Source: an uncultured Eubacteriales bacterium
Lineage (GTDB): Bacteria; Actinomycetota; Coriobacteriia; Anaerosomatales; JAHIQC01
Assembly: GCA_964565645.1 (NCBI GenBank)
Contig: CAZMFQ010000007.1
Span: 1-64,000 of the forward strand
Direction: 5' to 3'
DNA: 64,000 bases
Below the pieces are notes generated by a model. The model searched no databases. It saw only the letters and a program-made list of their open reading frames with translations, and was not told the origin of the DNA. Position numbers and translations under genes: made by a program. Below, in pieces: positions 8,339 to 59,339 of this stretch (the stretch's first letter is position 1; every line of letters begins with the position of its first letter).

Positions 8339-8401
8339 CTGAGTCTCCGTCCGTCGGCTGGGAACATACCCGTAACCGACGCTTATGAAAGGCGCGCTCA
8401 G

Positions 8402-30338: not shown

Positions 30339-30414
30339 TGGTGGAGACGAAGGGGCTCGAACCCTCGACCTCAGGCTTGCAAAGCCCGCGCTCTCCCAGC
30401 TGAGCTACGTCCCC
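30339..30414 (-). tRNA. tRNA-Ala (anticodon UGC)
   Basis: Minus-strand read GGGGACGTAGCTCAGCTGGGAGAGCGCGGGCTTTGCAAGCCTGAGGTCGAGGGTTCGAGCCCCTTCGTCTCCACCA: cloverleaf with GTTCGAGCC T-loop, anticodon-loop TTTGCAA, encoded CCA. Confidence 0.9.
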
Positions 30415-31112: not shown

Positions 31113-31252
31113 ATGCGGCTGGTTGCATGGAGCGCACAGCTCGCCCGTCGGGCCTGCTGATCGGACCAAGAGATGTCCTGCGCGAAGGAGGTGTACACGG
31201 GATGGGTCCAATACGAGTTCACTCAACGACAGCAATCAAGGAGGTAGTCTCC

Positions 31253-32596
31253 ATGCTCAAGCGCACGCTGCCGCTGGCCGGCCTCGTAGCCGCGCTGGTA
31301 TTGGCTCTCCCCGCTTTCGCGTTCGCGGCCGACCCCAACGGGGCGGACACGCTTGCGGCGGACCCCACTCTCGCGACGACGTTCATCTGGATGCTTGTCG
31401 CAGCGTTCCTTGTCTATTTCATGCAGGCAGGCTTCGCCATGGTCGAGGCCGGGTTCTGTAGAGCCAAGAACGCCACGAACCTGATGATGAAGAACCTGCT
31501 CGACTTCGTTATGGGGTCGCTCGCGTACTTCGCGATCGGCTTCGCCCTCATGTACGGCGCCGACAAGGCGGGCATCGTCGGAACGACCGGCTGGTTCATG
31601 GCCGGCGGCAACTACGATGTGACGGTCTATCGTGACTTCATGTTCCAAGTCGTCTTCGCCGCTACCGCGGCGACCATCGTATCGGGCGCGGTCGCCGAGC
31701 GCCTCAAGTTCTCCGCGTACCTCGTGTACTCCGTCGTGATCAGCGCGGTGATCTACCCGCTGTACGGTCACTGGGTCTGGGGCGGCGGTTGGCTCTCCCA
31801 GATGGCCACTCCCTTCCACGACTTCGCGGGCTCAGGCGTGGTCCACGCGCTCGGCGGCTTCGTCGGTCTCGCAGGCGCCATGGTGCTCGGTCCGCGCTTC
31901 GGCAAGTACGACAAGGACGGCAAGCCGAAGGCCATCCCGGGTCACAACATCCCTCTCGCAGCCCTGGGCGTGTTCATCCTGTGGTTCGGCTGGTTCGGCT
32001 TCAACCCCGGCTCGACCCTCAACGGCAACGACCTGCGCATCGCAGTGATCGCCGTGAACACCAACATGGCTGCAGCCGCGGGTTCTGCGATCGCCCTGCT
32101 GATCGTCAAGCTCAAGACGGGCACCTTCGACATCGGTATGGCTCTCAACGGCGCACTCGCCGGCCTGGTCGCGGTCACCGCGCCCTGCGCTGTCATCAGC
32201 GGTGGCTCCGCGATCGCCATCGGCGCCGTCGCCGGCGCACTGGTGGTCATGGCCATCTACCTGGTGGAGAACATGGGTATCGATGACCCGGTGGGCGCGT
32301 TCTCCGTCCATGGCGTCAACGGCATCTGGGGCCTGCTTGCCGTCGGTCTGTTCGCCGACGGGACCTACGGCGGCGTCACCGGTCTGTTCTTTGGCGGTGG
32401 TACGGCGCAGCTCGTATCTCAGATCATCGGCGCCGCAGTGGTCGCCGCATGGGCGTTCGGACTCGGCTTCATCACCTTCAAGGGGATGGACCTCGCATTC
32501 GGTATCCGCGTCACTCCCGAAGAGGAGATCCGCGGACTCGATATCGACGAGCATGGTAGCTCGGCATACCCGAACTTCCTGGTAGTGGAAGAGTAG
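31253..32596 (+). CDS. amtB: Ammonium transporter AmtB
   Basis: Signal peptide plus Amt-family motifs (FIWMLVAAFLVYFMQAGFAMVEAGF, DFAGSGVVHALGGFVGLAGAMVLGPR); AAGGAGG RBS. Confidence 0.95.
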   Translation: MLKRTLPLAGLVAALVLALPAFAFAADPNGADTLAADPTLATTFIWMLVAAFLVYFMQAGFAMVEAGFCRAKNATNLMMKNLLDFVMGSLAYFAIGFALMYGADKAGIVGTTGWFMAGGNYDVTVYRDFMFQVVFAATAATIVSGAVAERLKFSAYLVYSVVISAVIYPLYGHWVWGGGWLSQMATPFHDFAGSGVVHALGGFVGLAGAMVLGPRFGKYDKDGKPKAIPGHNIPLAALGVFILWFGWFGFNPGSTLNGNDLRIAVIAVNTNMAAAAGSAIALLIVKLKTGTFDIGMALNGALAGLVAVTAPCAVISGGSAIAIGAVAGALVVMAIYLVENMGIDDPVGAFSVHGVNGIWGLLAVGLFADGTYGGVTGLFFGGGTAQLVSQIIGAAVVAAWAFGLGFITFKGMDLAFGIRVTPEEEIRGLDIDEHGSSAYPNFLVVEE

Positions 32597-32625
32597 ACAC
32601 CAGACCCACCGAGGAGGTGAAGACC

Positions 32626-32964
32626 GTGAAGAAGATAGAAGCGGTGATCCGGCCCGAGAAGCTGGACGACGTCAAGGCGGCCCTCGAGGCGGCCGGTTAC
32701 CCCGGACTGATGCTCACGCGCATCGAAGGCCATGGCAAGCAGAAGGGCCTCATGCAGCAGTTCCGCGGTCGCCAGTACAAGGTGGAGATGCTGCCGAAGT
32801 ACAAGATCGAAGTCGTATGCGCCGACGGTGATTGCGCCAAGATCATCGAGGCGGTATCGAGCTCGGCCCGCACAGGCGAGGTCGGCGACGGCAAGATCTT
32901 CGTCAGTGATATCTCCGACGTGACCCGTATCCGCACCGGAGAGTCCGGAGACGTGGCCATCTAG
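32626..32964 (+). CDS. glnK: P-II nitrogen regulatory protein
   Basis: MKKIEAVIRPEKL...RGRQYKV (T-loop Tyr) ...GDGKIFVSDI...IRTGE. GTG start at 32626 chosen for GAGGAGG spacing; the track start of 32617 is too close to the RBS. Confidence 0.9.
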   Translation: MKKIEAVIRPEKLDDVKAALEAAGYPGLMLTRIEGHGKQKGLMQQFRGRQYKVEMLPKYKIEVVCADGDCAKIIEAVSSSARTGEVGDGKIFVSDISDVTRIRTGESGDVAI

Positions 32965-33044
32965 CGACACACCGTGCGAGTGACGACAGGGCGGGGGCTC
33001 GTCGGCCCCCGCCCTGCGCACACCCGGACCCAGGGAGCGAAGCG

Positions 33045-33383
33045 ATGAAGCGGATCGAAGCCATACTGCGCCCGGAGCGGCTCGAAGAAGTGCGCTCGGC
33101 CCTCGACGAACTCGAGCGGATGGGCATGACGGTCATCGAGACCAAGGGGCACGGCACACAGGGCGGCCTCTCGCAGACCTGGCGGGGGGGCGAATACCAC
33201 GTGACCCTCGTCCCGAAGGTCATGGTCATCGCCGTGGTCCACGACCATGAGGTCACGGAGACCATCGAGACCATCGTCGCGGCCGCACGGACCGGCGTCA
33301 TGGGCGACGGCAAGATCTTCGTCACGCCGGTCGAGCAGGTCATCCGCATCCGGACCGGCGAGTCCGGCGCCGAGGCGCTCTAG
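33045..33383 (+). CDS. Second P-II family protein (paralog)
   Basis: MKRIEAILRPERL...WRGGEYHV...GDGKIFVTPV...IRIRTGE. Confidence 0.85.
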   Translation: MKRIEAILRPERLEEVRSALDELERMGMTVIETKGHGTQGGLSQTWRGGEYHVTLVPKVMVIAVVHDHEVTETIETIVAAARTGVMGDGKIFVTPVEQVIRIRTGESGAEAL

Positions 33384-33472: not shown

Positions 33473-33906
33473 ATTGCCGGGATGGCCTTCGCACCGCCCG
33501 AGGTTCCCCTCCAAAAGGATATCCTTGGGAGCTTTCGGCCAAGTGAGCGGTCCCTCTTGGCCTCATCCCACGTGATCCCAGGGGCTTTTGCCCGGGTCTT
33601 CGGCGGCTGAACTCGTCTTGTGTCCTACCGAACAAGTCGCGCCTACCTGACGCGTACCGATCGAACCGACATTGTACGAACCTACACTCCTGACGTCTCT
33701 CTCAGCATGCGGCCAGCTCGAAGCCCTTCATCTGCCATCCCGGCATAAATCGAATCTCTCACCGGGTGATCCACACCTCTTTTGTCAACGTGCCGATCGC
33801 CATCACTGATCGCCTTTGAGTCTATATACCCGCGGAACCGAGACTCGCACGCAAAGAGGCGACCCCGGTTCGGGGCCGCCTCCGGATGGCGCATGTGACT
33901 CCGGTG

Positions 33907-34617
33907 CTACTTGAGCGAGTCGAGGGTCTTGCGCATCTGGTTCTCGGACTGCTCGCCGAGGAGCCGTGTCGCCTCGGTACCGTCGGTGTTGAGGAACACG
34001 AACGTCGGCACCGCGGTGATACCGTACTTCTGGCTCAGGCTCTGGGCCTGTGGATCCGTGTCGGCGTTGATGAGCCGGAACTCGACCTTGCCCTTGTACT
34101 GCTTCTCTAGCCCGTCGACCACGGGCTTCATCGTTTTGCAGCTGGGTCACCAATCTGTGTAGAACTCGTAGAGCACCGGCGTGTCGGTCGCCTTCTCGAC
34201 GGGTGCCGGGGCGACCGCGACGGTCCCCCGCTCGATGTCGCCGTTCCACGCGACCATACCCTGATCGAAGTGGTAGATCTTCTTGAAGCCCGCCTGCGTC
34301 AGGTACTGAACGGCCGACGCCGATCTGGAACCTGTCGCGCAGTAGACGGCCACCGGCTGGGCCGGGTCCAGAGCGGCCGCCTGAGCCGCCATCTGGTCGA
34401 CCGGGATGTTGATGGCACCGGGCACGTGACCTGCCTCGAACTCCCCGGGCGTCCGGACATCCACAACGGTGACGCCGCTTCCCGCGAGTTCGGTGAGCTT
34501 GGTCGAGTCGACCACCTCGACCTGCGCACCGCCGCTCGGACTGAACATGGCAAAGCCCAGCGCGACGACCGCGATGGCTGCCACCGCCCAGACGATGGTC
34601 TTGGTGTTCTTGTTCAT
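33907..34617 (-). CDS. Exported rhodanese-thioredoxin fusion interrupted by one in-frame TGA (34147..34149) at the first Cys position of the Trx CxxC motif; candidate selenoprotein (W-U-P-S-C-K) or a nonsense pseudogene
   Basis: Upstream ORF (34147..34617) has a signal/TM, a rhodanese domain with catalytic loop CATGSRS, and ends ...VLYEFYTDW-TGA. The next 5 codons read PSCKT, then MKPVVDGLEKQYKGKVEFRLINADTDPQAQSLSQKYGITAVPTFVFLN..., which aligns to thioredoxin ([20 protein letters not shown]...KYGIRGIPTLLLF). The two ORFs share one frame and are separated only by the TGA. Confidence 0.6.
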
Positions 34618-34657
34618 CGGGCTCCGCTCCTCGAAGGCCGTACATTCCTGTCGGAGT

Positions 34658-34673
34658 ATACCCCTAGGGGTAT
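34658..34673. promoter_or_regulatory. Perfect 16-bp palindrome ATACCCCTAGGGGTAT in the divergent promoter region, CsoR/CstR/RcnR-type operator-like
   Basis: GC-tract palindrome with AT-rich ends about 40 bp upstream of the rhodanese-Trx start codon; resembles published CsoR-family operators (ATACCC...GGGTAT type). Confidence 0.4.
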
Positions 34674-34773
34674 CTGCCGTGCAACTCCTCGGCTATGATC
34701 GCCGAGGTCGGGGATAATCACGTGTATCGCACCTCACACGCTCCGAGCAAGAAAGCGGCCAGCGTGTGGCCAT

Positions 34774-37700
34774 ATGGGGGAACACGTCACAGCCGTCTGG
34801 AGTCTTCGCGTGCCCGAGCCTGCCGAGCATCCCGCCCAACCACGAACGCATCGCCCGTTCCGAGACGAGCTCTACTCGGCAGAGCGCCTGACACGGTGCG
34901 CCCGCGAACTGGCCGAGCAGCAGTCCTGGACCGACGAGCTGGCAAGCGCTCCGTCCCCCTTGTTCGAGATGATCGCCGACGCCTCCGCGGGCCTCTCCGC
35001 GGACAACTCGATGTTCTCCGAAGCCGTCCGCTCGCAACACCCCGTCGCGCCGGCGGCAGAATGGTTGCTGGACAACTTCTACCTCATCGAGGAACAGGTG
35101 CGGCTCGTCCGCGATGATCTGCCGGCCGGGTACAGCCGGGAACTCCCCCGGCTGACGCGCGGCGCGTTCGCGGGGTACCCGCGGGTCTTCGAAGCGATCG
35201 TCGAACTGCTCTCGCACACCGATTCAAGACTCGACGAGAGCGTGCTCACACAGTTCATCGACGGGTTCCAGGACGTCTCACCGCTCTCGATCGGAGAGAT
35301 ATGGGGCATCCCGATCGCCCTGCGCATCGCGCTCGTCGAGAACCTGGCCCGCCTGTCCGCACGCGTCGGAGAGACGCACCGGTCGACCCGCATGGCCGAC
35401 GAGTGGGCGGATCGCCTGCTGCTCGCCGTGCCCGACGGCTCGGATGCGCTGCGCGCGCTGATCGACGAGCTCGAGGAGCGCGTCGGCCTCGTGGACCCGA
35501 CGTTCCTCATGCGCCTCGCGCAACGGCTCTCGGGCCAGGACACCGGCGCCGACATGCTCGGTGCATGGCTCGAGCGGCGCTTGCGGGAGTCAGGGATCGA
35601 CCTGGGCGCCCTCAGCCACGAACTACAACAGGTCCAGGCGGCCGACCAGGTCTCGATCGCGAACTCGATAACCGCGATCCGCTTCCTGGACGCCTACGAG
35701 TGGCGCGGGTTCTTCGAGCATGCGAGCCTCGTGGACCAGGTCCTGCGCGAGGACCCCGTGGGCGTCTACCCGCATATGGACTTCAAGAGCCGCGACCGCT
35801 ACCGTCACGCTCTCGAAGGCATCGCCCGTCGCTGCCCCATGACCGAGATCGCTGTCGCCGAGGCGGCAGTCAGCCTGGCTCTCGACTCCATGACCCACGA
35901 CGCGACCGACGAGATCTCCGCGCACGTCGGCCACTACCTTATCAGCGGTGGTCGCTACGACCTCGAGTCGGCGGTCGCCTACCGCCCGCACCTGCGCGAG
36001 AGACTCTACCGCGGCCCGCTCGCGCGAAAGGGGCTCTTCTACTGGGGGATGCTCGGGATCACCACCCTGGCGCTGGCTGCGGTGCTGCTCGCCGCCATCG
36101 CCTCCTCGGGGGCCTCTACGGCGGCGCTCGCCGCCGTGATGCTCATCGCTCTGGTGCCGCTCTCGGATCTCGCGCTCAACATCACGAACCGGACGGCTGC
36201 GTGGGTCTTCCCGCCCCGTATCATGCCCAAGCTCGACTTCCTCTCTCCGGTCGCGGAGGCGCATCGCACGCTCGTGATCGTGCCGACACTCCTCTCCTCG
36301 GTCGGCGCGGTCCGCCACGTGCTCGACAACCTCGAGGTCGCGTACCTCGCCAACCGGGACGATGAGATCTACTTCGGGCTCCTCGGCGATCTCAAGACCG
36401 CTGCCGAGGAGCGCCTTCCCGGAGACGACGCGGTCATCGAGGCGGCCGTCGAGGGGATCGAGGCGCTCAACGACCGGTACCTCGTCGAGCACGGACGCCG
36501 GCCGTTCTGCCTGTTCGTGCGAGAGCGTCGGTACAGCGAGCAGGAGCGGACGTGGATGGGTTGGGAGCGCAAGCGCGGCGCGCTCACGGAACTCAACCGG
36601 ATGCTGCGCGGCTCCAACTCCACGTCGTTCTCCCACCGGATCGGCGAGGAGGCTGCGCTTGCCGCGGTGACGTTCGTGCTCACGATCGATTCGGACACCG
36701 TGCTCACCCGCGACGGGGCACGCAAGCTCATCAGCACGATCGCGCACCCGCTCAACCGCGCGGTGCTCCTGCCGGGCGACCGGCGGGTGTACATGGGCTA
36801 CGGGCTCATCCAGCCGCGCGTCGGTATGTCGCTGCCGGCGTCCTCGCGCTCGTTCTTCGCGTGGCTGTACTCGGGCGTCACCGGAGTGGACCCGTACGCC
36901 GGCGCGGTCTCAGACACCTACCAGGACGTGTTCGGCGAAGGAAGCTTCACCGGCAAGGGCATCTACGAGGTCAGCGTCTTCAACGCGGTGCTGGAGGGCC
37001 GTTTCCCCGAGGGGCGACTGCTGTCCCACGACCTGATCGAGGGCTGCTACCTGCGGGTCGGCCTCGCGAGCGACATCGAGGTGCTCGACGACCACCCTTC
37101 GAGTTACCTGTCCCATATGGCACGCATGCACCGCTGGGTGCGCGGCGACTGGCAGACGCTGCCGTGGCTGGGGGCGACGGTGCCCGCGGAAGGACGTCGC
37201 GAACGCAACGTGCTCTCGCCGCTGCACCGCTGGAAGCTGTTCGACAACGTGAGACGTTCGCTCGTGGCCCCGGCGTTGCTCATGCTCATGACCCTGGGCT
37301 GGACGGTTCTGCCGGGCCCCGCGTGGGCCTGGCCGCTCGCGATGTCACTCGTGGTCTTCTTCCCGGTCTACTTCAGCCTCGCGGACTCGATCGTGTTCCG
37401 CTCCCGCGAGGTCTCGTTCTCGACCACCATGGAATCAGCGTGGCGTGATTTCGGCCGTGACTCGGCGCGCGCCCTCCTGACGCTCTCACTGCTCCCTTAT
37501 CAGGCCTACGTGATGATCGATGCTGCCGTTCGCGCCGTCTGGCGCATGACGGTCTCGCAACGGCATCTGCTTGAATGGGAGACCGCGGCCGACGCCGACC
37601 GGCGTCTGGGCGTGGGCCTGTCCGGATTCGCGCGCAAGCTGGCGCCCTCCTCGGCGGTCGCCCTGCTGCTGCTCGCCCCCGCGGCGCTGCAGAGCCCGGC

Positions 37701-40700
37701 GCGCCTGGGGGTCTCGGCCGCACTCGCGCTGCTGTGGGCGGCAGCCCCCCTGATCGCGTGGCGCGTCTCGCGCACGAGTGTCCCGGCCGAGCGTGAACTC
37801 ACCCCTGCCGAGGAGTCGGAGCTACGACGCCTGGCGCGACGCACGTGGCGCTTCTTCGAGACGTTCGTCACCTCCGAAGGCCACCATCTGGCGCCAGACA
37901 ACTTCCAGGAGGACCCCAACGGCGAGGTCGCGTGGCGGACCTCGCCCACGAACATCGGTCTGCAGCTCCTTGGCAATCTCTCCGCGTACGACCTGGGGTA
38001 TCTCGACCTGACCGGTCTGATCGGACGAACCGCCGACACGCTTGCGGCCATGGCGGGCCTGAAGCGGTTCCGGGGGCACTTCTACAACTGGTACGACATA
38101 CGGACCCTCGCGCCGCTGCCTCCCGAGTACGTCTCGACCGTGGACAGCGGGAACCTCGCGGGGCATCTGCTCGTGCTCCGGATCGGCCTGCTCGAGGCCT
38201 CCGAAGCGCCGGTCCTGGGCGCGCAGTTGCTCTCGGGGATCGCTGATACGGCCGCGCTGGCGATCGAGGACCTCGTGACCGAGCAGGTCGCCGTCGAGTC
38301 CGCGCCCGCCCTGCGCGACCTGCGTGAACAGCTCGACGAGCTGGCCCGGGACGCCTCTCTCGAAGAGCCACCGCGCGACATGGCGCGCTGGGACGCCGTG
38401 CTCGAACGCATCGAGACCATGGCCGCCGCGGTGGATCGATCCGCCTCGGCGTTGTTCGGTGATGTCGATCCGCCGACCGCCGCGTCGCCACACCCGGGCT
38501 CCGCCGTCGCACGGGCCCACGCCTCGGTCGTCGCGGTGCTCGCCGCGGTCGAGGCCGCACGCTCCACCATCTCGTCGCTCACCCCATGGGCGGCGCATGC
38601 AGCGGATGTGCCGCAGGCGGTCCTCGAAGACCCACGCGGGGCGTCGCTGGTCCCGCTTCTCGATCACGTCCCGAGCCTCGTGGGTCTCGCCGAGGGACTG
38701 GGCGACGCACTCGCGGCGCTTTCCTCGATCGCCGAGGAGCCGCCGGGAGACTCCTTGGCGGAACGCGAAGCGGAACGCGCCTGGGCGACCGGGATGCTCG
38801 ACGGCGTGCTGGGAGCGCGACCGGCCGCGGCACAGCTCCTCGGCCAGCTGCACCTCGACGCGGCGATGGCGCGCGAGATGTGGGAGCACACCGACTTCAC
38901 GACCCTCTTCGACGAGCAGCGGCTGCTGTTCTCGATCGGCTACAACACGGCGGAGGGACGACTCGATCCGTCGTACTATGACATGCTCGCCTCGGAATGC
39001 CGGCTCGCGAGCTTCCTCGCGATCGCCAAGGGCGACATCCCGCAAGAGCACTGGTTCCGGCTCGGTCGGGCGATCACCCAGACCGCGGGCGGACGCGCGC
39101 TGCTGTCGTGGAGCGCCTCGATGTTCGAGTACCTCATGCCGCTGCTGGTCATGCGCTCGTGGCCGATGACCCTGCTCGACCAGACCTACGATTCGGTGGT
39201 GCGCCGGCAGATCCAGTACGGGCGCGAACGCGGCGTTCCGTGGGGGGTCTCGGAATCGGCGTTCAACGCCAAGGACGCGGGGCTCGTGTATCAGTACCAG
39301 GCCTTCGGTGTGCCGGGGCTCGGGCTGAAGCGCGGGTTGTCCGACGACGTGGTCGTCGCCCCGTACGCGACGGTGCTCGCCCTGCCCGTCGCACCCGGCG
39401 AGGCCATCGCGAACCTCCACGAACTCGCGGGCCAGGGAGCCCGGGGCCGCTACGGCTTCTACGAGAGCCTCGACTACACGCCGGGCAGGGTGCCGGCGGG
39501 ATCCAGCCGCGCGGTGGTGAGGGCGTACTTCGCTCACCACCAGGGCATGAGCTTCGTCGCCCTCGCCAACGAGCTTTCGGGCATACCGATGCACGATCGG
39601 TTCCACCGCGATCCGATGGTCGCCTCGGCGGAGCTGCTCCTGCAGGAGCGGGTGCCCCGGCACGTGCAACTCGCGACGCCCAACGTGGGCGAGGTGGAGC
39701 ACGTGCGCTCGGTGCGCGAGCTGCCGCCCCCCGTCACCCGCGCCTACCCGCTCGCCGACACGCCCGTGCCTGCGACGCACTTCCTGTCCAACGGCCGCTA
39801 CTCGGTCATGGTCACCAACGGGGGCGGGGGCTATAGCCGCTGGCAGGACGTCGCGATCAGCCGCTACCGCGAGGACGTGACGCGCGATTGCTGGGGACAG
39901 TTCTTCTACCTGCGCGACACCGCGACCGGCCGCGTGCACAACGCCGCGAGCAACCCGTGCCCCGAACGTCCCGACGAGTATCACGTGACGTTCGCGCATG
40001 ACAAGGCCGAGTACCGTCGCATCGACGGGGACATCGAGGTGCACACCGAGATCTCCGTGAGCCCCGAGGACGACGCCGAGATCCGCCGCATCGGCATCAC
40101 CAATCATGGGCGCACCCGCGTCGAGCTCGAACTGACGTCCTACTTCGAGCTCGCGATGGCCGATCAGGCGGCCGATCAGGCGCACAAGTCGTTCTCGAAC
40201 CTCTTCGTCGAGACCGAGGCGCTCGACCCGATGCGGGCTCTGCTCTTCTCGCGGCGCCCGCGTTCCGCCGAGGAGCGTCGGATCTGGGGTGTCCACGTCC
40301 TCGCTTGCGAGGACGGCGACGAGTGCGACTGGACCTACGAGACCGACCGCGCTCGGTTCCTCGGCAGGCTCAACGGGGCCGAGGCCCCCACCGCCGTCAG
40401 GGCAGGCGGGCCGCTCAGTCGCACGACGGGACCGGTGCTCGACCCCTGCTGCGCGATCCGCAAGACGGTCATGGTCGAAGGCGGCGAGAGCGTGCGCCTC
40501 GTGTTCACCACGGGAGTGGCCCAGACGCGTGAGGAAGCGGTCCGTCTGGCCGAGAAGTACGGCGACCCGCGCAGTGCGCAGCGCGCCATCGACCTGGCGT
40601 GGACGGCGGCCCAGATCGAACTGCGCGACCTGGGTATCACCCCGGCGGAAGCCGTCGTGCTCGAACGTCTGGCGTCACGCCTCCTGCTCACCGACCCCGC

Positions 40701-43614
40701 CTCCGTGCTCAAGATCAAGACCCCCGTGGAGAACGGGCTGCAGATGTCGGGCCTGTGGTCCCTCGGCATCTCCGGCGACCTGCCGATCCTGCTCGTGCGC
40801 ATCGAAGAGCCGGAACACGCCCCCCTCGTGCGTCAGGCGCTTCTCGCCCACCAGTACTGGCGCCACAAGGGCCTCGTCTCCGACCTCGTGATACTCAACA
40901 CGCGACCGACCGCGTACTCCGACGAACTCGACGACCGCCTGAGGATGCTCGTGCGCACGGGCCACGCGCTTCAGATGCTCGATCGTCCGGGCGGGGTGTT
41001 CCTCCGCCGCTCCGACCAGATGCATCCCGACGTCCTCAACCTGCTGCTCACGGTCGCGCGCGCCACGCTCGACGGCGACAGCGGACCCCTCGAGGTCCAG
41101 CTCAACCGGCGTGTGCCGCGTGCCGAGGAGCCGCCCGCCCTCATGCCTGCGCGTGCGCCTGAAGCGTGGGCCGCCCCCTCGCCGCCCCGGCCGGACCTGC
41201 TCTTCGACAACGGATGGGGCGGGTTCGACTCGTCGGCGGACGAATACGTGATCGTGCTCGACGAGGGGCGCTGCACGCCCGCGCCGTGGATCAACGTGAT
41301 GGCATCGCCGGAGTTCGGCTGTATGGTCTCCGAAGCCGGAATCGGCTGCACCTGGGCGCTCAACAGCCATGAGAACCGCATCTCCACGTGGAACAACGAC
41401 CCCGTCTCGGACGGGTCCGGCGAGGTCATATACCTGCGCGATGAGGAGACCGGGGAGTTCTGGAGCCCCACGCCGCTGCCGGCCCGGGGGCCCGGCACCT
41501 ACACCGTCCGCCACGGCCGGGGCTACACGCGCTTCGAACACGAGTCCCACGGGCTCGAGCAGCGGCTCGAGTGGTTCGTGCCCGTCGAGGACCCGGTGCG
41601 CGTGGTGCGACTGACGCTGCGCAACACGGGCGATACGGTGCGGCGACTGTCCGCGACGCAGTTCGTGGAGTGGTCGCTCGGCAGTTCGCGCAGCAAGGCG
41701 CAGCACCTGGTCGTGACGTGGTTCGACGCCGAGCACCAGCTTCTGACCGCGCACAACCACTTCAACATGGACTTCCCGGGACGCGCCGCGTTCCTGGCCA
41801 CCGACGCCGAACTGCACTCGTATACCGGGAGCCGCACCGAGTTCGTCGGTCGCAACCGCGGACCTGCAGACCCAGCGGCGATGGGCCGCAAGCGCCTCGG
41901 CGGGCGCACCGGTCGCTTCCACGACAACTGCGGCGCTCTGATGGTCGCCCTGGAGCTGGCGCCCGGCGAGGAGCGCAGCGTCTGCTTCCTGCTCGGGCAG
42001 ACGGACACCCTTCAGCAGGCTCGCGAGCTCGTGGCCGCCTATCGCGACCCGAGCCGGGTCGACGCCGAACTCGCCGGTGTGTGCGAGCAATGGCGGCGCG
42101 TGCTCGGCAGCGTGCGAGCCCGGACGCCGGACCCGGCGCTCGACCTGCTCGTCAACGGCGCGCTCCTGTACCAGGCCCTTGCCTGCCGGATCTGGGGTCG
42201 CACCGCGACCTACCAGTCGAGCGGCGCGTTCGGCTTCCGCGACCAGCTCCAGGATTCGCTCGCGCTGCTCCTGGCACGTCCGGACCTCGTGCGCGAGCAG
42301 ATCGTCGAGGCCTCACGACACCAGTTCGCAGAGGGCGATGTCCTGCACTGGTGGCAGCCCTCCTCGGGCCGGGGAGTCCGGACGCGGATCACCGACGACC
42401 GACACTGGCTGCCGTTCGTGGTCGCCGAGTACCTCGACGTGACCGGGGACCGAAGCGTTCTGGACGAGGTCACCCCGTTCATCGAAGGACCCGAAGTCGA
42501 TCCCGATCGTGAGGACAACTACCTCCAACCGGCGCTCTCCGAGCAGGCCGTGAGCGTCTACGAACACTGTGTGGCGGCCCTGGAGTCCGGGACCGGGGTC
42601 GGCGACCACGGACTCCCCCTCATGGGTGGCGGCGACTGGAACGACGGCATGAACCGCGTCGGCATCGGGGGCCGTGGCGAGAGCGTGTGGCTCGCCTGGT
42701 TCCTGGCGACGGTGCTCAGGCGCTTCGCCCCGATCTGCGAGATGCGCGGAGAGGCCGGCCGCGCAGCCGAGTACCGCAGGCGGGCCCAGGCGTTCATAGA
42801 GGCCGCCGAGGAGTCGGGATGGGACGGATCGTGGTATCGCCGCGCGTACTTCGACGACGGCACCCCGTTGGGATCACGCTCCTCGGCAGAGTGCAGGATC
42901 GACGCCATCGCGCAGGCATGGGCGACGATCAGCGACGGTGCGGACCCGGGCCGGGCCCAGATGGCGCTCGACGCCGTGGAGGACAAGCTCGTCGACCGCG
43001 AGCATGGACTGATCGCGCTGCTCACACCGCCGTTCGACACGATGCCGCACGACCCCGGCTACATCAAAGGGTACGTCCCCGGCGTTCGCGAGAACGGCGG
43101 TCAGTACACGCATGCGGCCATCTGGGTGGTGCTCGCTCACCTCCTGCGTGGCGATGGCGACGAGGGGCACGGCCTTCTGAGCATGATCAACCCGATCAAC
43201 CACGCACGCACCGACGAAGAGGCGGAACACTACAAGGTCGAGCCCTACGTGGTCGCCGCGGACGTGTACGGGGCGGCACCGCATGCGGGCAGGGGCGGCT
43301 GGACCTGGTACACCGGCTCCGCTTCGTGGTTCTACCACGTCGCGGTCCGCAACCTCTTGGGCTTATGGGTCGAGGACGTCGAAGGGATCCCGCATCTGCG
43401 GTTGGATCCGTGCATCCCGAGATCATGGAAGGGCTACACGCTCACGTACACGCACGGAACGACGACCTACCGGATCGGGTTCGAGAATCCGCGTGGGGTC
43501 AACCGCGGCGTGGCGTACGTCGAACTCGATGGGATGAGGCTCGAGAGCGCCTCGGTGCCGCTGCGCGATGACGGCGGCAGCCACGACGTGCGGGTGGTGC
43601 TCCTCGGCGGTTAG
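34774..43614 (+). CDS. ndvB: Cyclic beta-1,2-glucan synthase-like giant protein (NdvB/Cgs/ChvB architecture: N-terminal domain + TM region + GT84 glycosyltransferase + C-terminal GH94 phosphorylase-like domain)
   Basis: 2946-aa ORF. GT region has TIDSDT, WERKRG and HRWVRGDWQ motifs. C-terminal region has the GH94 signatures GGGDWNDGMNRVG...GESVWLAWF and a six-hairpin (alpha/alpha)6 region. Confidence 0.8.
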   Translation: MGEHVTAVWSLRVPEPAEHPAQPRTHRPFRDELYSAERLTRCARELAEQQSWTDELASAPSPLFEMIADASAGLSADNSMFSEAVRSQHPVAPAAEWLLDNFYLIEEQVRLVRDDLPAGYSRELPRLTRGAFAGYPRVFEAIVELLSHTDSRLDESVLTQFIDGFQDVSPLSIGEIWGIPIALRIALVENLARLSARVGETHRSTRMADEWADRLLLAVPDGSDALRALIDELEERVGLVDPTFLMRLAQRLSGQDTGADMLGAWLERRLRESGIDLGALSHELQQVQAADQVSIANSITAIRFLDAYEWRGFFEHASLVDQVLREDPVGVYPHMDFKSRDRYRHALEGIARRCPMTEIAVAEAAVSLALDSMTHDATDEISAHVGHYLISGGRYDLESAVAYRPHLRERLYRGPLARKGLFYWGMLGITTLALAAVLLAAIASSGASTAALAAVMLIALVPLSDLALNITNRTAAWVFPPRIMPKLDFLSPVAEAHRTLVIVPTLLSSVGAVRHVLDNLEVAYLANRDDEIYFGLLGDLKTAAEERLPGDDAVIEAAVEGIEALNDRYLVEHGRRPFCLFVRERRYSEQERTWMGWERKRGALTELNRMLRGSNSTSFSHRIGEEAALAAVTFVLTIDSDTVLTRDGARKLISTIAHPLNRAVLLPGDRRVYMGYGLIQPRVGMSLPASSRSFFAWLYSGVTGVDPYAGAVSDTYQDVFGEGSFTGKGIYEVSVFNAVLEGRFPEGRLLSHDLIEGCYLRVGLASDIEVLDDHPSSYLSHMARMHRWVRGDWQTLPWLGATVPAEGRRERNVLSPLHRWKLFDNVRRSLVAPALLMLMTLGWTVLPGPAWAWPLAMSLVVFFPVYFSLADSIVFRSREVSFSTTMESAWRDFGRDSARALLTLSLLPYQAYVMIDAAVRAVWRMTVSQRHLLEWETAADADRRLGVGLSGFARKLAPSSAVALLLLAPAALQSPARLGVSAALALLWAAAPLIAWRVSRTSVPAERELTPAEESELRRLARRTWRFFETFVTSEGHHLAPDNFQEDPNGEVAWRTSPTNIGLQLLGNLSAYDLGYLDLTGLIGRTADTLAAMAGLKRFRGHFYNWYDIRTLAPLPPEYVSTVDSGNLAGHLLVLRIGLLEASEAPVLGAQLLSGIADTAALAIEDLVTEQVAVESAPALRDLREQLDELARDASLEEPPRDMARWDAVLERIETMAAAVDRSASALFGDVDPPTAASPHPGSAVARAHASVVAVLAAVEAARSTISSLTPWAAHAADVPQAVLEDPRGASLVPLLDHVPSLVGLAEGLGDALAALSSIAEEPPGDSLAEREAERAWATGMLDGVLGARPAAAQLLGQLHLDAAMAREMWEHTDFTTLFDEQRLLFSIGYNTAEGRLDPSYYDMLASECRLASFLAIAKGDIPQEHWFRLGRAITQTAGGRALLSWSASMFEYLMPLLVMRSWPMTLLDQTYDSVVRRQIQYGRERGVPWGVSESAFNAKDAGLVYQYQAFGVPGLGLKRGLSDDVVVAPYATVLALPVAPGEAIANLHELAGQGARGRYGFYESLDYTPGRVPAGSSRAVVRAYFAHHQGMSFVALANELSGIPMHDRFHRDPMVASAELLLQERVPRHVQLATPNVGEVEHVRSVRELPPPVTRAYPLADTPVPATHFLSNGRYSVMVTNGGGGYSRWQDVAISRYREDVTRDCWGQFFYLRDTATGRVHNAASNPCPERPDEYHVTFAHDKAEYRRIDGDIEVHTEISVSPEDDAEIRRIGITNHGRTRVELELTSYFELAMADQAADQAHKSFSNLFVETEALDPMRALLFSRRPRSAEERRIWGVHVLACEDGDECDWTYETDRARFLGRLNGAEAPTAVRAGGPLSRTTGPVLDPCCAIRKTVMVEGGESVRLVFTTGVAQTREEAVRLAEKYGDPRSAQRAIDLAWTAAQIELRDLGITPAEAVVLERLASRLLLTDPASVLKIKTPVENGLQMSGLWSLGISGDLPILLVRIEEPEHAPLVRQALLAHQYWRHKGLVSDLVILNTRPTAYSDELDDRLRMLVRTGHALQMLDRPGGVFLRRSDQMHPDVLNLLLTVARATLDGDSGPLEVQLNRRVPRAEEPPALMPARAPEAWAAPSPPRPDLLFDNGWGGFDSSADEYVIVLDEGRCTPAPWINVMASPEFGCMVSEAGIGCTWALNSHENRISTWNNDPVSDGSGEVIYLRDEETGEFWSPTPLPARGPGTYTVRHGRGYTRFEHESHGLEQRLEWFVPVEDPVRVVRLTLRNTGDTVRRLSATQFVEWSLGSSRSKAQHLVVTWFDAEHQLLTAHNHFNMDFPGRAAFLATDAELHSYTGSRTEFVGRNRGPADPAAMGRKRLGGRTGRFHDNCGALMVALELAPGEERSVCFLLGQTDTLQQARELVAAYRDPSRVDAELAGVCEQWRRVLGSVRARTPDPALDLLVNGALLYQALACRIWGRTATYQSSGAFGFRDQLQDSLALLLARPDLVREQIVEASRHQFAEGDVLHWWQPSSGRGVRTRITDDRHWLPFVVAEYLDVTGDRSVLDEVTPFIEGPEVDPDREDNYLQPALSEQAVSVYEHCVAALESGTGVGDHGLPLMGGGDWNDGMNRVGIGGRGESVWLAWFLATVLRRFAPICEMRGEAGRAAEYRRRAQAFIEAAEESGWDGSWYRRAYFDDGTPLGSRSSAECRIDAIAQAWATISDGADPGRAQMALDAVEDKLVDREHGLIALLTPPFDTMPHDPGYIKGYVPGVRENGGQYTHAAIWVVLAHLLRGDGDEGHGLLSMINPINHARTDEEAEHYKVEPYVVAADVYGAAPHAGRGGWTWYTGSASWFYHVAVRNLLGLWVEDVEGIPHLRLDPCIPRSWKGYTLTYTHGTTTYRIGFENPRGVNRGVAYVELDGMRLESASVPLRDDGGSHDVRVVLLGG

Positions 43615-46436: not shown

Positions 46437-46513
46437 TGGTGGGCCCGATTGGATTCGAACCAATGACCTCACGGTTATCAGCCGTGCGCTCTAACCAACT
46501 GAGCTACGGGCCC
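46437..46513 (-). tRNA. tRNA-Ile (anticodon GAU)
   Basis: Minus-strand read GGGCCCGTAGCTCAGTTGGTTAGAGCGCACGGCTGATAACCGTGAGGTCATTGGTTCGAATCCAATCGGGCCCACCA; a hairpin (GACCAGG...CCTGGTC) with a T-run immediately 3'. Confidence 0.9.
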
Positions 46514-50718: not shown

Positions 50719-51471
50719 TTACTCTACCCCTTCGCGACCACGGGACGACGCGCCGCTATCGAAACGGCGTGCATCGCCCTGCAGCAGCGGCAGGATGTCT
50801 GAGATCGAATCCAAGACGTAGTCGGGATGCTCCGCCAACAGCAGCCCGTGATCGAACGGCCCCCAGAACGCAGCGGCCGCCACTGCGCCACCCGAGACGG
50901 CGGCCGCCATGTCGTGGGGGCTGTCGCCGACGTACATACACTCCTCAAGAGGTACGCCGAGGAGCCGTGCCGCATGCCTCAAGGGATAGGGGTCGGGTTT
51001 GTGGACGGTCACGTCGTCGGCTCCGACAACAAGGTCGACGAACCCGTCCAGCTCGAACAACCGCAGTCCCCGCAACGCCCCGGCGTTCAGCTTGGATGTG
51101 ACGACGCCCACAGGGTAGCCCATCCGCTTCAGTTCGGAGAGCGTCTCGGCGGTGCCGGGGTAACCGGTCACCATCTCGTCGTGGTGAGCGTTGTTGTGCA
51201 CACGATACTCGCGCACCAACTCATCGACATCGTCCGGCGAGATGTCGGCCATCTGCTTCCACAGAGGTGTGCCGATGTCGCGCAGCATGACGTCATCGGG
51301 GACAGCCTCCCCCAACACGGTGCTCGTCGCATAGCGGAACGATGCGAGGATCAGCCCGATCGAGTCGATGAGCGTGCCGTCCAGATCGAACAGGACGGCG
51401 CGGACATGTGAGGCGGGGCCGGACTCGGCTCCGACCCCGCCTCCGGAAGGTGTCAGGCTACTCGTCGTCAC
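50719..51471 (-). CDS. HAD-IA family phosphatase (PGP/PpaX-like)
   Basis: Motif [12 protein letters not shown], motif II VVTSK, motif III/IV ...[11 protein letters not shown]. Only in-frame start candidates are GTG 51471 (14-nt overlap with gyrA) or ATG 51525; start uncertain. Confidence 0.7.
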
Positions 51472-54034
51472 CGACGTCTTCGAACTCCTCGCTGACCAGT
51501 TCCTCGGCGGCCGCTTCCATGTCATTGACCGGAGCTTCCGCGCCGGCCTCTCCCTCGAGCAAAGAGGTCTGTCCTTCAGGCACCGCAGCCGGTCGGACCT
51601 TCTTCTTGCCCGCACTCACTCGGGCGATTGCGCTCACGCAGTCGGTCTTTGCGACGTTCATGACCTTCACGCCCTGTGTGGAGCGACCGAGCTTCGAGAT
51701 GTCGTTGGCCTTGACGCGGATGACCACGCCTTCGTGGCTGATGAGCATCAACTCGTGCTGCGGCTGGACGATCTTCATGCCGGCGAGCGGGCCCTTCTTA
51801 TCGGTCACCTGGATCGTCTTGACCCCCATGCCGCCGCGCTTCTGCTCGGGATACTCGACCACCGGCGTGCGCTTGCCATAGCCGTGCTCGGTGACCACGA
51901 AGAGCTCACTGTCATCCGGCGCGATCTCCATGCCCAAGACCGCTTCGCCCGCCTTGATGTTCATGCCTTTGACACCCATGGTGTCCCGGCCCATCGGGCG
52001 CGCATCAGACTCGTCCCACTTGATGGCCTTCCCTGCGGTCGAGACCATCATGACCTTCTGTCCGGGGGTCACGCGGCGCACTGCGATGAGCTCGTCCTCG
52101 TCGCGGAGGTTGATGGCGATGATGCCGTCGCGCCGCGAACGGTCGTAGGCCTGCATGGCGGTCTTCTTGACCATGCCTTCGCGTGTGGCGAAGAGCAGGT
52201 AGTCCTCGGCGCCGAACTCCTTGGTGGTGATAACGGCCGCGATCTTCTCGTTCTGCTCGAACGGCAGCAGGTTGACCGCCGCGGTGCCGCGGGCATGACG
52301 CGAACCGACCGGGAGTTCGTGGACCTTCAGGCGGTAGACCTTGCCCTTGGTCGAGAAGAACAGCACGTAGTCGTGGGTCGAGCTGATGAACAGGTGCTCG
52401 ACGAAGTCGTTCTCCTTGAGGTTCACCCCGGCGACACCCTTACCGCCGCGCTTCTGCTGGCGGTACGTCGCGACCGGCAGACGCTTGACATAGCCCGCCT
52501 TGGTGATGGTGACGACCATGTCCTCCTCGGCGATGAGGTCCTCGACATCGAGGTCCGCGGCCACGCCGGCGAGTTCGGTGCGGCGCTTGTTCGCGAACTT
52601 GTCGCGAAGGTCCGCCATCTCTTCCTTGATGATCTGCAGGACGAGATTGACGTCGCCCAGAACCTGCTGGTACCACGCGATCTTCTTGCGCAGCTCCTCG
52701 AGCTCCTCCTCGATCTTGTGACGCTCGAGACCGGTGAGCCTGCGGAGCCGCATCTCCAGGATCGCGTCGGTCTGGATCTCGGAGAGTCCGAAGCGTTCGA
52801 TCAGTCGGGCCTTCGCCTCGGCGTCGTCCTGGCTCGCCCGGATGATCTTGATGACTTCGTCGATGTTGTCCAGCGCGATGACGTAACCCTCGAGGATGTG
52901 GGCCCGCTCCTGAGCCTTGCGCAGCTCGTAGCGCGTGCGCCTCGTGATGACGTCCTTCTGGTGCTCGACGTAGTACTTGAGCATCTCGGGGAGCGTCAGG
53001 GTTCGCGGCACTCCGTCGACGAGCGCGAGCATGATCACGCCGAAGCCGGTCTGGAGTTGGGTGTGCTTGTAGAGTTTGTTCAGGACGACCTGAGGGATGC
53101 ACGAGGTCTTGAGCTCGATGACGACCCGCATCCCCTTGCGGTCAGACTCGTCGCGCAGGTCCGAGATCTCCGTGAGCTTCTTCTCCCGCACCAGGTCCGC
53201 GATCTTGGTCACGAGCTTGGACTTGTTCACGGTGTACGGGATCTCGGTGATGATGATGCGGGTGCGCCCGGTCGAGGTCTGCTCGATATGCGCCTTGCCA
53301 CGAACCTTCAACGATCCCCGGCCGGTCGAGAAGTAGTCCGAGATGCCTTCGCGGCCCATGACCATGCCGCCGGTCGGGAAGTCCGGGCCGGGCATAACGG
53401 CCATGAGTTCTTCGACGGTGGCCTCAGGGTTGTCGATGATCATGGTGACGGCGTCGATGGTCTCGCCGAGGTTGTGCGGGGGGATGTTGGTCGCCATACC
53501 GACCGCGATACCGGCGCTTCCGTTGACGAGCAGGTTCGGGAAGCGACTCGGCAGGACGAGCGGCTCCTCGAGCGACTCGTCGTAGTTCGGCCCGAAGTCG
53601 ACGGTCTCCTTGTCCAGATCGCGGAGCAACTCCATCGAGATGCGCTGGAGCCTTGACTCCGTATACCGCATCGCAGCCGCCGAGTCTCCGTCCACTGAGC
53701 CGAAGTTGCCGTGGCCGTCGATGAGCGGCACGCGCATCGAGAAGTCCTGCGCCATTCGGACCATGGTGTCGTACACGGCCGAGTCACCGTGGGGGTGGTA
53801 CTTGCCGATGACCTCTCCGACGGTCCACGCCGACTTCTTGTAGGCGCGACCGGCGGTCAGGCCGGACTCGTTCATGGCGTAGAGGATCCGGCGGTGGACC
53901 GGCTTGAGGCCGTCCCTGACATCAGGAAGCGCGCGCGCCACGATGACCGACATCGAGTACTCGAGGAAGCTGCGCCGCATCTCCTCCTGGATGTCGATCG
54001 GCAGGATCGTCGTGCCTGTGATCTCGTCTGTCAC
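51458..54034 (-). CDS. gyrA: DNA gyrase subunit A
   Basis: Active-site region AMRYTE...; GyrA-box and six-bladed C-terminal beta-pinwheel; acidic tail. Confidence 0.97.
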
Positions 54035-54559
54035 TTAAAGGACTCCTCGCTGCTTCAGCGTCCGTACCGTCATCCACACCGCAATCGCGATCATGCCGAT
54101 CCCAAAGCCGACCAGGATCGTCCCTCCAAGCACCCCGATCGGGCCGGAGTCCGCCGTCTTGGACAGCCCCACCGCGCCGATCACGAGCATCATCAGCCCG
54201 AGGGCGCCTATACCGACGGCCACTATCACGCCCAGCTGCCACAACCCCTGCGCAGCGGGCGGCTCCTCGGCGGCGAGGGTCGCCATCATCTCGACCAACG
54301 CCGCGTCGTCGACCTTCGCCGAAGACTCCGCCTCCCGGTCCACCGCGTCTCCGGAGGCGGCGGGTGCCGTGGTCCGCTGCCCGGACTCTGCGGCGGCGGG
54401 CTCGAACGCCTCCTCCGCCGGAGCGTCGACCGGCTCGGGGGCGGTACCGGTGACCGCTTCCTCGGCCTGCTTGGTCTTGGCCAGCTCGTCGAACTGCTCT
54501 CGCTCCCAGGGTGGGGGCTCGAACGCCTTCGGCGCGCGCCTGTCGGGTGAATCCGCCAT
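54035..54559 (-). CDS. Small membrane protein between gyrB and gyrA (acidic/Ala-Pro-rich N-terminus, two or three TM helices)
   Basis: 174-aa ORF immediately abutting the gyrA start. Confidence 0.6.
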   Translation of the reverse strand: MADSPDRRAPKAFEPPPWEREQFDELAKTKQAEEAVTGTAPEPVDAPAEEAFEPAAAESGQRTTAPAASGDAVDREAESSAKVDDAALVEMMATLAAEEPPAAQGLWQLGVIVAVGIGALGLMMLVIGAVGLSKTADSGPIGVLGGTILVGFGIGMIAIAVWMTVRTLKQRGVL

Positions 54560-54576
54560 CGTCGTGCCGTACTCCC

Positions 54577-56565
<1,989 letters not shown>

Positions 56566-56592
56566 CTAACACAAGGTGTAGGGTCAGAGGCG

Positions 56593-57141
56593 CTATTTCA
56601 TGCCTGAGCCAGCACCAGATGGCCTGTGTCCGGCGTTATTGCGCTCTTGACCCTTTTTCCACTCGAGATCACGAATCGTGGCTCTCAGGGCGGCCTCTCG
56701 GAGCTTCTCATTCTCGATGCCAGCTACACTGCGCTCTACGGCCATGAGTTCCTCCGGGCTCAGGGGCTCCGGATCCATATGCGTAGCCCCGTAGCGCCTC
56801 TCCGAACGCTCCACCGATTCCTGTTCCGCCCGCGCACGAGAGACGCTCTTGGTTACAGTGAAGCGCATGGACCTGATCGGATTCTCTCCGAGCTCGGTCT
56901 GGAGTCTTTCCAGAAGTTGACCCGCCATGGCCTGCAACTCGTTCGCCCAGACCGGAGAGTCCACGAACACGAGGAGTTGTCCGTCCCTGACGCCCTGTAT
57001 TTGGGTGTGTCCGGCTATCTCGGGCCCCACCAGCGCATCCCAGACTTCGATGATCCGGGCCGTCGTGAGGTGGCCACCCTTATCCATCTGTTTGAGCAAC
57101 CGCCTGAGACCTTCACCCAGGTTCGTCGGCCCGGGACTCAT
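56593..57141 (-). CDS. DUF721 (DciA-like) domain protein
   Basis: Conserved position between recF and gyrB; N-terminal region LTTARIIEVWDALVGPEIAGHTQIQGVRDGQLLVFVDSPVWANELQ matches DUF721. Confidence 0.7.
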   Translation of the reverse strand: MSPGPTNLGEGLRRLLKQMDKGGHLTTARIIEVWDALVGPEIAGHTQIQGVRDGQLLVFVDSPVWANELQAMAGQLLERLQTELGENPIRSMRFTVTKSVSRARAEQESVERSERRYGATHMDPEPLSPEELMAVERSVAGIENEKLREAALRATIRDLEWKKGQERNNAGHRPSGAGSGMK

Positions 57142-58220: not shown

Positions 58221-58226
58221 GACATG

Positions 58227-59330: not shown

Positions 59331-59339
59331 CTACTTCTT

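Follow-up and report, generated by a model that had tools for sequence, protein, structure and literature searches.

This study concerns a minus-strand locus at positions 34617-33907 of a 64-kb stretch of DNA from an uncultured bacterium (contig CAZMFQ010000007.1 of assembly GCA_964565645.1, positions 1 to 64,000; analysed at its full length and referred to below as the window), which is probably one gene encoding a 236-residue membrane-anchored rhodanese-thioredoxin selenoprotein. The gene starts with an ATG (34617-34615), stops with a TAG (33909-33907) and consists of a single reading frame, the sole interruption of which is a TGA at 34149-34147. Judging by the comparative evidence laid out below, this UGA codon is very likely decoded as selenocysteine (Sec).

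The open reading frame (ORF) ahead of the TGA (34617..34147) accounts for 156 amino acids and ends in ...YEFYTDW; past the TGA the frame reads PSCKTMKPVVDGL... up to the TAG, giving a read-through product of 236 aa, which gene callers divide into products of 156 and 74 aa. The G+C content of third codon positions (GC3) was 0.86 upstream of the UGA and 0.92 downstream of it. Alignment to solved thioredoxins, made with a natural Cys homologue (P0001), showed the UGA to coincide with the first Cys of WCGPC, i.e. to lie at the N-terminal nucleophile position of a redox motif U-P-S-C (34149-34138, context W-U-P-S-C). An earlier note, made from the sequence alone, had seen here two minus-strand ORFs in one frame split only by TGA, with the UGA on the nucleophilic Cys of a thioredoxin CxxC, and both observations were borne out.

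A six-frame scan of the window, in which each flanking frame had to reach at least 50 codons with GC3 > 0.8, returned one site only where a TGA lies between two coding-like frames, namely this one; because it is unique in the scan, the arrangement is not attributed to chance. Genome-wide reassignment of UGA was ruled out, since TGA is the ordinary stop codon of 17 of the 43 predicted genes in the window.

Conservation of the UGA codon and its cysteine counterparts

Homologous loci were drawn from GTDB r232 with one genome per species, taking the best 80 of 173 stretches that encoded relatives. The codon at the Sec position was TGA in 73/73 aligned loci from 67 assemblies (74/74 when the window is included), with no TAA, TAG, sense codon or frameshift at this position in any of the 74 aligned sequences. 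In every complete homologue the TGA was followed by [P/A]-x-C and the frame then stayed open for 78-80 codons up to a common C-terminus, the thioredoxin residues xxC and VPTF being conserved downstream, so that coding conservation was evident on both sides of the UGA. The homologous sequences shared 35-70% protein identity with the window protein, which excludes a shared recent nonsense mutation, and the recurrence of the TGA in independent assemblies shows that it is not a sequencing slip. Almost all carrier assemblies were labelled as Coriobacteriia, Actinomycetota or Actinomycetes metagenome-assembled genomes (MAGs).

A search with the read-through protein as query against 5.8 billion proteins produced 329 matches. 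Among the best 120 of these, all but four were 142-192 residues long and spanned approximately two thirds of the query, and the short homologues that were retrieved stopped at one and the same place (25/25), with the ending ...YEFYTDW, ...EFYTDS or ...EFYTNS. Two full-length matches carried Cys at the Sec position, P0001 (WCPSCK) and P0006 (VCPSC). A third counterpart was found at the nucleotide level: locus L081 (L081:6001-6717; 71% identity) has TGC as its Sec codon, shares the neighbouring GH94 gene and the operator described below, and has retained the RNA hairpin downstream of the codon base for base despite the Cys codon. From its sequence, this locus looks like a recent Sec-to-Cys replacement or, possibly, an assembly variant.

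More distant Cys-containing forms were obtained from 1.8 billion representative proteins, namely about 20 complete fusions of rhodanese and thioredoxin, 230-270 residues in size and 36-42% identical over their full length, with signal peptides or lipoboxes and a motif that was mostly WCxPC; P0132 is one of these Cys-bearing homologues. The architecture thus belongs to a wider Cys family, within which an actinobacterial clade uses Sec. Sec/Cys pairs at one position are consequently documented by TGA in 74/74 sequences on one side, and by Cys in L081, P0006, P0132 and the roughly 20 distant fusions on the other.

A shorter paralogue was seen in ten loci (L065-L074, e.g. L065:2900-3290), which carries the same Sec-thioredoxin module with TGA, xxC and hairpin; the paralogue at L065 has a signal anchor only and no rhodanese domain. 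Some genomes (DFBG01, DIWS01, JBASNZ01) contain both the rhodanese-thioredoxin and the shorter form.

A covarying hairpin behind the UGA and alternative readings of the codon

We examined the segment comprising the UGA and the following 72 nt, which could be aligned without gaps in all 74 sequences, for a selenocysteine insertion sequence (SECIS). A hairpin formed by columns 23-28 pairing with columns 36-41 stood at constant distance from the UGA across the alignment, and 94.7% of its cells were paired, as against 10-53% when the 3' arm was slid by 1-3 columns. Changes on both sides were found in three of the six pairs (55 cells), and the covariation score of 0.320 compared with 0.112 in shuffled alignments (0/500 reached the observed value) and with no more than 0.115 in the slid controls. 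RNAalifold, unprompted, predicted the same helix plus one U-A pair, leaving a 5-nt loop GGUCG. The hairpin had also been read in the earlier note, as AGCCCG-UGGUCGA-CGGGCU; it is indeed present at 34127-34109, starting 19 nt after the UGA and not 20.

Two of the covarying pairs connect codons. Pair 27-37 joins the third, synonymous base of a Pro codon with the first base of a Gly or Arg codon (U-A 36, C-G 34, G-C 1), while pair 28-36 joins the first base of a Val, Leu or Ile codon with the third base of an Asp or Glu codon (G-C 53, C-G 13, A-U 3, U-A 3). A synonymous site thereby changes in step with the amino acid encoded ten bases (three codons) further downstream, for which selection on the protein alone is insufficient as an explanation. 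Rather, to judge from the alignment, the need for a SECIS appears to have visibly shaped the protein, as in the pairs Val-Asp, Leu-Glu and Ile-Asp and in a Gly or Arg that is set by the Pro codon. The element is a clear case of RNA structure and protein sequence constraining each other.

The bacterial SECIS (bSECIS) model prescribes a loop of 3-9 nt, a stem of 4-16 bp, a G in the first two loop positions and a spacing of 16-37 nt from the UGA, with an energy cut-off at a minimum free energy (MFE) of -7.5 kcal/mol or lower (PMC13188914). All four constraints were passed by 73 of the 74 sequences, with L073 as the sole failure. The window hairpin has a 7-bp stem, the loop GGUCG and a spacing of 26 nt; the loop GGUCG recurred in 61/74 sequences, the median MFE across the 74 was -10.7 kcal/mol, and the fold of the window sequence had a z-score of -2.3. 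A longer lower stem suggested by single-sequence folding was discarded, being neither conserved nor predicted on the alignment. No Rfam match to a SECIS was obtained, either at gathering thresholds over the whole window or at E <= 10 on positions 33900-34700; the Rfam scans gave two tRNAs and one chance match only. On the plus strand, the complement of the hairpin (34109-34127) followed by TCATCGTTTT was scored 'terminator-like' by a consensus scan, which is a by-product of the SECIS.

In the decoding proposed here, the hairpin would recruit SelB with Sec-tRNA(Sec), and Sec would be inserted as the first residue of U-P-S-C. With TGA in 74/74 sequences, an open thioredoxin frame behind it, a covarying hairpin and Cys homologues, the UxxC selenoprotein candidate of the earlier note is supported, and the comparisons it had called for (Cys or Sec in orthologues, signs of pseudogenisation, SECIS prediction 3' of the UGA) all came out on the side of the selenoprotein. 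It had further considered a Sec-containing fusion unusual for a high-GC lineage. This is less unusual than supposed, because the Sec-decoding trait has been recorded in Actinobacteria (PMC5322559) and the lineage is Coriobacteriia-like.

Several observations nevertheless weigh against Sec decoding. ARAGORN found no tRNA-Sec in the 64-kb window or in 60 related loci, NCBIfam and Pfam scans found no selA, selB or selD among the approximately 40 ORFs of the window, and a motif scan of the window and of the flanks of related loci yielded nothing credible with SelA, SelD or SelB signatures. The ratio of non-synonymous to synonymous substitution rates (dN/dS) downstream of the UGA was not decisive either way, its median of 0.44 having been obtained with dS of about 1, near saturation, and under strong GC3 bias. 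Finally, L073 (L073:3031-3105) contains the TGA and lacks the SECIS hairpin, its sequence GGCCCGUGAUUGAGAAGGU forming no such fold. Decay of this copy or the use of another SECIS may account for the difference. The ATACCC-N4-GGGTAT operator is still present upstream of L073.

Of the other readings of the codon, the one that fares best, and is still improbable, is that a near-cognate tRNA (Trp or Cys) reads through a leaky UGA-C with no part played by a SECIS, the hairpin being no more than a general stimulator of read-through; the resulting site W-W/C-P-S-C would be free of selenium. The base after the UGA was C in 73/74 sequences, and no Sec machinery was found in the window or in the flanks of related loci. 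UGA-C is a context of weak termination, as known from work in E. coli. However, the UGA falls exactly at the catalytic Cys position, which is the hallmark of Sec/Cys pairs, and the hairpin conforms to every bSECIS constraint, including a small apical loop opened by GG and the required spacing from the codon. A lineage in need of Cys could moreover use TGC, as L081 does, and the fact that 67 assemblies have kept TGA speaks for a Sec-specific benefit.

It is yet harder to maintain that the locus gives rise to two products, a rhodanese ending at the UGA and a 74-residue thioredoxin fragment initiated at the ATG at 34131. Most sequences do have an ATG 15 nt past the UGA, and databases list the 74-aa product with weak thioredoxin Pfam matches, but this ATG is not conserved, being replaced by GTC (Val) in L006 and L070, by GTG (Val) in L009 and by CTG (Leu) in L050. 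The downstream part alone could not be a redox-active thioredoxin, as the earlier note had also argued from its lack of the Cys; it is without the first beta-strand and the entire xxC active site, and the residues PV.YEFYTDW preceding the UGA are the conserved first thioredoxin strand, continuous with the domain.

The earlier note's own alternative, a recent nonsense pseudogene in which a change from TGC or TGT to TGA inactivated the fusion gene and left its downstream part to decay, can practically be dismissed: the TGA is one base away from the TGC of the close relative L081 and gene callers report two ORFs here, but the same TGA persists in 74/74 sequences that are not copies of one another (73 distinct rows) and have diverged to 35-70% identity, no further stops or frameshifts occur in any of them, the C-terminus is conserved, GC3 past the UGA remains at 0.92, and a covarying hairpin is held at constant distance, so that the comparative data decide for the selenoprotein.

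Predicted location, regulation and function

With its N-terminal signal anchor, the protein should have both domains outside the cytoplasm. Such a hydrophobic stretch was present in nearly all rhodanese-containing homologues, approximately ten of which have a lipobox (LTGC, LAGC) instead. The rhodanese domain has its catalytic Cys93 (TGC at 34341-34339) within the loop CATGSRS; C93, T95, G96, R98 and S99 were invariant across alignment A1, and the domain was kept with an intact catalytic loop in nearly all family members. The first description of this part as an exported rhodanese with CATGSRS therefore holds for the domain and the loop, and 'exported' is better replaced by N-terminal signal anchor.

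Structure was modelled with AlphaFold2 on the natural Cys homologue P0001, not on the window protein itself. The P0001 model (mean predicted local distance difference test score, pLDDT, of 88) comprised a membrane helix at residues 3-25 and two confident domains, of which the thioredoxin domain superposed on classical thioredoxins with 1.1-1.5 Å over about 92 residues (Foldseek). A thioredoxin fold, Sec at the first CxxC position and a cis-Pro loop, which together define thioredoxin-fold UxxC selenoproteins, are all found in this family, the Sec as predicted from the UGA.

A perfect palindrome upstream of the gene is a candidate operator of the CsoR/CstR family. In 455 kb of related loci, ATACCC-N4-GGGTAT occurred 45 times, 44 of them directly upstream of the rhodanese-thioredoxin gene and the remaining one upstream of the thioredoxin-only paralogue; the window contains it once, at 34673-34658, and the lipobox subgroup of homologues is without it. 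The palindrome overlaps a putative promoter, in which the TAT of the -10-like TATACT doubles as the operator's last half-site triplet, and TTGC...ATACCC-N4-GGGTATa.T was conserved in the aligned upstream regions of 46 loci. A strict sigma-70 consensus scan called no promoter at 34655..34684, and the promoter proposal therefore rests on conservation. Downstream of the gene, the hairpin at 33883-33855 (MFE -33.3 kcal/mol, z-score -3.5, 0/200 shuffles equally stable) is a candidate intrinsic terminator which the terminator scan did not call, the T run being short. Neither a promoter nor a terminator was found between the two halves of the gene, and the arrangement is that of a candidate monocistronic unit covering both halves, with an upstream promoter and a downstream candidate terminator.

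Type-2 CsoR operators have the form ATATACCCCTNAGGGGTATAT, a 5'-TAC-N9-GTA-3' inverted repeat flanking C/G tracts (PMC3902906), while CstR is a persulfide sensor whose regulons characteristically include rhodaneses (PMC8643695). The candidate operator resembles both the type-2 CsoR and the cst operators (PMC3902906, PMC8643695).

From its two domains, we tentatively suggest that the protein could act as a rhodanese-thioredoxin persulfide-reducing module, a specific role for which the case is plausible but falls short of an even chance. Fixed by its signal anchor on the outside of the cytoplasmic membrane, the 236-residue protein would take up sulfane sulfur from thiosulfate, polysulfide or persulfide on the rhodanese Cys93, forming Cys-S-SH. 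The Sec157 selenolate would then attack the Cys93 persulfide, releasing sulfide or handing the sulfur on and forming an Se-S bond with Cys160, for the re-reduction of which a CcdA/DsbD-type conduit in the membrane might supply the electrons; overall, this would amount to a self-contained extracellular module. Where selenium is scarce, translation would stop at the UGA and leave the anchored rhodanese alone. With the promoter spacer and the -10 element occupied by a CsoR/CstR-type operator, the gene would be de-repressed, probably by reactive sulfur species and less likely by copper. GlpE and thioredoxin are a known couple of this kind, in which thioredoxin meets a rhodanese persulfide. The part of thioredoxin as acceptor or reductant of rhodanese persulfides is also established for plant sulfurtransferase-thioredoxin pairs (PMC4618214).

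Counting against this scheme are gaps in its structural, regulatory and electron-supply components. The linker of the P0001 model (residues 128-148) was of low confidence (pLDDT about 65; predicted TM-score, pTM, 0.61), which leaves the relative orientation of the two domains in that model uncertain. The candidate operator, read as TAC-N8-GTA, is one base shorter than the TAC-N9-GTA of characterised CsoR/CstR sites, and no motif or ORF of a CsoR-family gene was found in the window, nor any such gene in the conserved neighbourhood. Clustering of flanking ORFs brought up no CsoR, CcdA/DsbD or sulfur-metabolism partner, and the conserved neighbourhood accordingly holds no CcdA/DsbD gene to supply electrons.

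A different role for the same selenoprotein, unlikely but with an appreciable chance of being correct, would be to maintain copper or thiol-disulfide homeostasis outside the cytoplasm, controlled by a copper-sensing CsoR, instead of serving sulfane-sulfur metabolism; it might, for instance, reduce or oxidise the cysteines of exported proteins or handle Cu(I). The operator is as similar to copper-CsoR type-2 sites as to cst sites (PMC3902906). Exported thioredoxins, e.g. Bacteroides TrxP, were among the fold matches, and the Pro at the +1 position of U-P-S-C recalls DsbA and glutaredoxin motifs. Against such a role stand the fused rhodanese, with an intact catalytic loop in nearly all members, and the absence of any copper ATPase or chaperone nearby. 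Rhodaneses are, moreover, typical of CstR and not of CsoR regulons (PMC8643695).

Genomic context and relation to known selenoproteins

Coordinates of the gene, its elements and other features of the window are collected in Table 1. Clustering of flanking ORFs identified a giant GH94 gene, Amt, P-II and tRNA-Ala as conserved neighbours, none of them obviously related in function to the selenoprotein gene. The GH94-type ORF (two GH94 supersandwich domains, one GH94 catalytic domain and one glucoamylase-like domain) adjoins the gene divergently in 59 related loci, and the Amt/P-II synteny was observed in approximately 34 loci. The presence of a dnaA-gyrA cluster indicates that the window spans the chromosomal replication-origin region. 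Elsewhere in the window, the ORFs at 9146-10795 (minus strand) and 11537-14476 (plus strand) gave weak matches to S-layer (SlpA-like) and OmpL47-type beta-barrel domains and are possibly cell-surface proteins, and a divergent pair at 7643-9091 consists of an ORF with an NAD-binding oxidoreductase domain (minus strand) and one with a molybdopterin-binding oxidoreductase domain (plus strand; sulfite-oxidase/MsrP-type).

Table 1 Features of the 64-kb window (columns: feature, position, strand, remarks)
Complete gene, probable selenoprotein	33907..34617	-	236 codons; signal anchor, rhodanese, linker, thioredoxin (U-P-S-C)
In-frame UGA, candidate Sec codon (residue 157)	34147..34149	-	aligns with Cys32 of WCGPC thioredoxins
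Candidate SECIS hairpin AGCCCG(U)-GGUCG-(A)CGGGCU	34109..34127	-	stem from 19 nt and apical loop from 26 nt past the UGA
N-terminal hydrophobic signal anchor	34543..34599	-	residues 7-25, TIVWAVAAIAVVALGFAMF; Lys3 and Lys6 lie ahead of it
Rhodanese domain	34243..34485	-	residues 45-125; Pfam PF00581, E 1.2e-21
Thioredoxin-fold domain	33919..34188	-	residues 144-233; cis-Pro motif VPTF; Pfam PF00085, E 5.7e-17
Perfect 16-bp palindrome ATACCCCTAGGGGTAT, candidate CsoR/CstR-family operator	34658..34673	-	between the -35 and -10 elements
Putative promoter region	34655..34684	-	-35-like TTGCAC 34684-34679; 18-nt spacer with operator; -10-like TATACT 34660-34655
13-bp G+C-rich hairpin and UUUG, candidate intrinsic terminator	33855..33883	-	24 nt past the TAG stop
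2946-residue GH94-type ORF, divergent neighbour	34774-43614	+	cyclic beta-1,2-glucan synthase-like
Ammonium transporter, then two P-II genes	31127-33383	+	convergent with the selenoprotein gene
tRNA-Ala(TGC)	30339-30414	-	syntenic across the family
dnaA, dnaN, recF, DciA-domain gene, gyrB, gyrA	51458-60952	-	classical order
tRNA-Ile	46437-46513		

Among experimentally verified prokaryotic selenoproteins, the closest in kind is the Sec-thioredoxin UxxC (PF00085), known e.g. from Treponema denticola (PMC13188914), with which the window protein has in common the thioredoxin fold, Sec in place of the N-terminal Cys and a SECIS inside the coding sequence after the UGA. In contrast to it, the window protein is not free and cytoplasmic, has U-P-S-C instead of U-G-P-C, and is fused behind a rhodanese with a signal anchor or, in some relatives, a lipobox. 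The TrxA equivalog model TIGR01068 gave 64.8 bits, below its cutoff of 96.8.

TsoB, a rhodanese/DsbD fusion-like selenoprotein also termed 'rhodanese form 5' (PMC13188914), is likewise associated with the membrane and joins a rhodanese to a thioredoxin-type module. Its model (NF045694) was the only curated selenoprotein model of rhodanese-thioredoxin architecture to give any match, which scored 55.8 bits where 805 are required and covered the thioredoxin part only. TsoB, however, extends over 572 positions with DsbD membrane domains and two Sec residues in UxxxxU, whereas the window protein is 236 residues long, has just one membrane helix, keeps Cys in its rhodanese and would carry only one Sec, in UxxC. 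Rhodanese selenoproteins of forms 1-4 (UxxS, UxxG, CxU; PMC13188914, PMC1088965) share a rhodanese domain in a bacterial selenoprotein, but carry their Sec in the rhodanese part, whereas the window protein has it in the thioredoxin domain; as the catalytic residue of its rhodanese is Cys, it is not a rhodanese-type selenoprotein.

The exported Cys-containing rhodanese-thioredoxin lipoproteins (P0132, P0163, P0180, P0212 and others) agree with the window protein in the order signal-rhodanese-linker-thioredoxin and in a size of 230-270 residues. Their genes lack an in-frame UGA, and Cys takes the place of Sec, mostly within WCxPC and also within VWCPPC. In the GlpE/PspE-thioredoxin and plant Str-Trx systems (PMC4618214), a rhodanese persulfide is resolved by a dithiol thioredoxin, as proposed here; those partners are separate, cytoplasmic or periplasmic, and all-Cys, whereas the window protein is predicted to be fused, exported and selenium-dependent. 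CstR-regulated rhodanese genes (PMC8643695) are repressed through a C/G-tract inverted-repeat operator, which the candidate operator of the window resembles, with a spacing one base shorter.

None of the curated NCBIfam selenoprotein models fitted the window protein, the 2026 catalogue of prokaryotic selenoprotein families contains no rhodanese(Cys)-thioredoxin(Sec) fusion, and literature text searches found no description of a rhodanese-thioredoxin selenoprotein fusion. These comparisons support assignment of the protein to the thioredoxin-fold UxxC class of bacterial selenoproteins, with an architecture that is absent from that catalogue and has been systematically mis-annotated. All public records that we examined gave a short 'rhodanese-like domain-containing protein' or 'hypothetical protein' together with an orphan 74-residue fragment. 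GenBank entries MDO8945519.1, PKQ29303.1 and MCX8006601.1 (P0013, P0021, P0117), for example, end at the Sec codon and are named rhodanese-like or hypothetical; one of them is assigned to a Desulfobacterales MAG, perhaps through faulty binning, as all other members are distributed among actinobacterial genomes. The split annotation thus constitutes a systematic error in more than 60 species-level genomes, and one that masks a selenium requirement.

Taken as a whole, the most far-reaching interpretation is speculative, and we would rate it as doubtful in its entirety: that the window protein is the founding example of an uncatalogued, mainly Sec-form family in subsurface Coriobacteriia-like Actinomycetota, exported and anchored to membrane or lipid, serving extracytoplasmic reduction of persulfide, polysulfide or thiosulfate under CstR-type control, with a product set by selenium and a protein shaped by its SECIS. 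If this were true, selenium supply would decide between a bare rhodanese and a full redox enzyme. Recognition of the gene would give an actinobacterial lineage that is poorly known and for the most part uncultured one more selenoenzyme, an exported one; should the genomes belong to OPB41/Anaerosomatales, the cultured members of that group respire sulfur, thiosulfate or iron (PMC9686372). With its conservation, the operator gives a testable lead to a regulator and an inducing signal, and natural Sec/Cys pairs such as that of the window and L081 offer a system for testing the contribution of selenium to persulfide chemistry.

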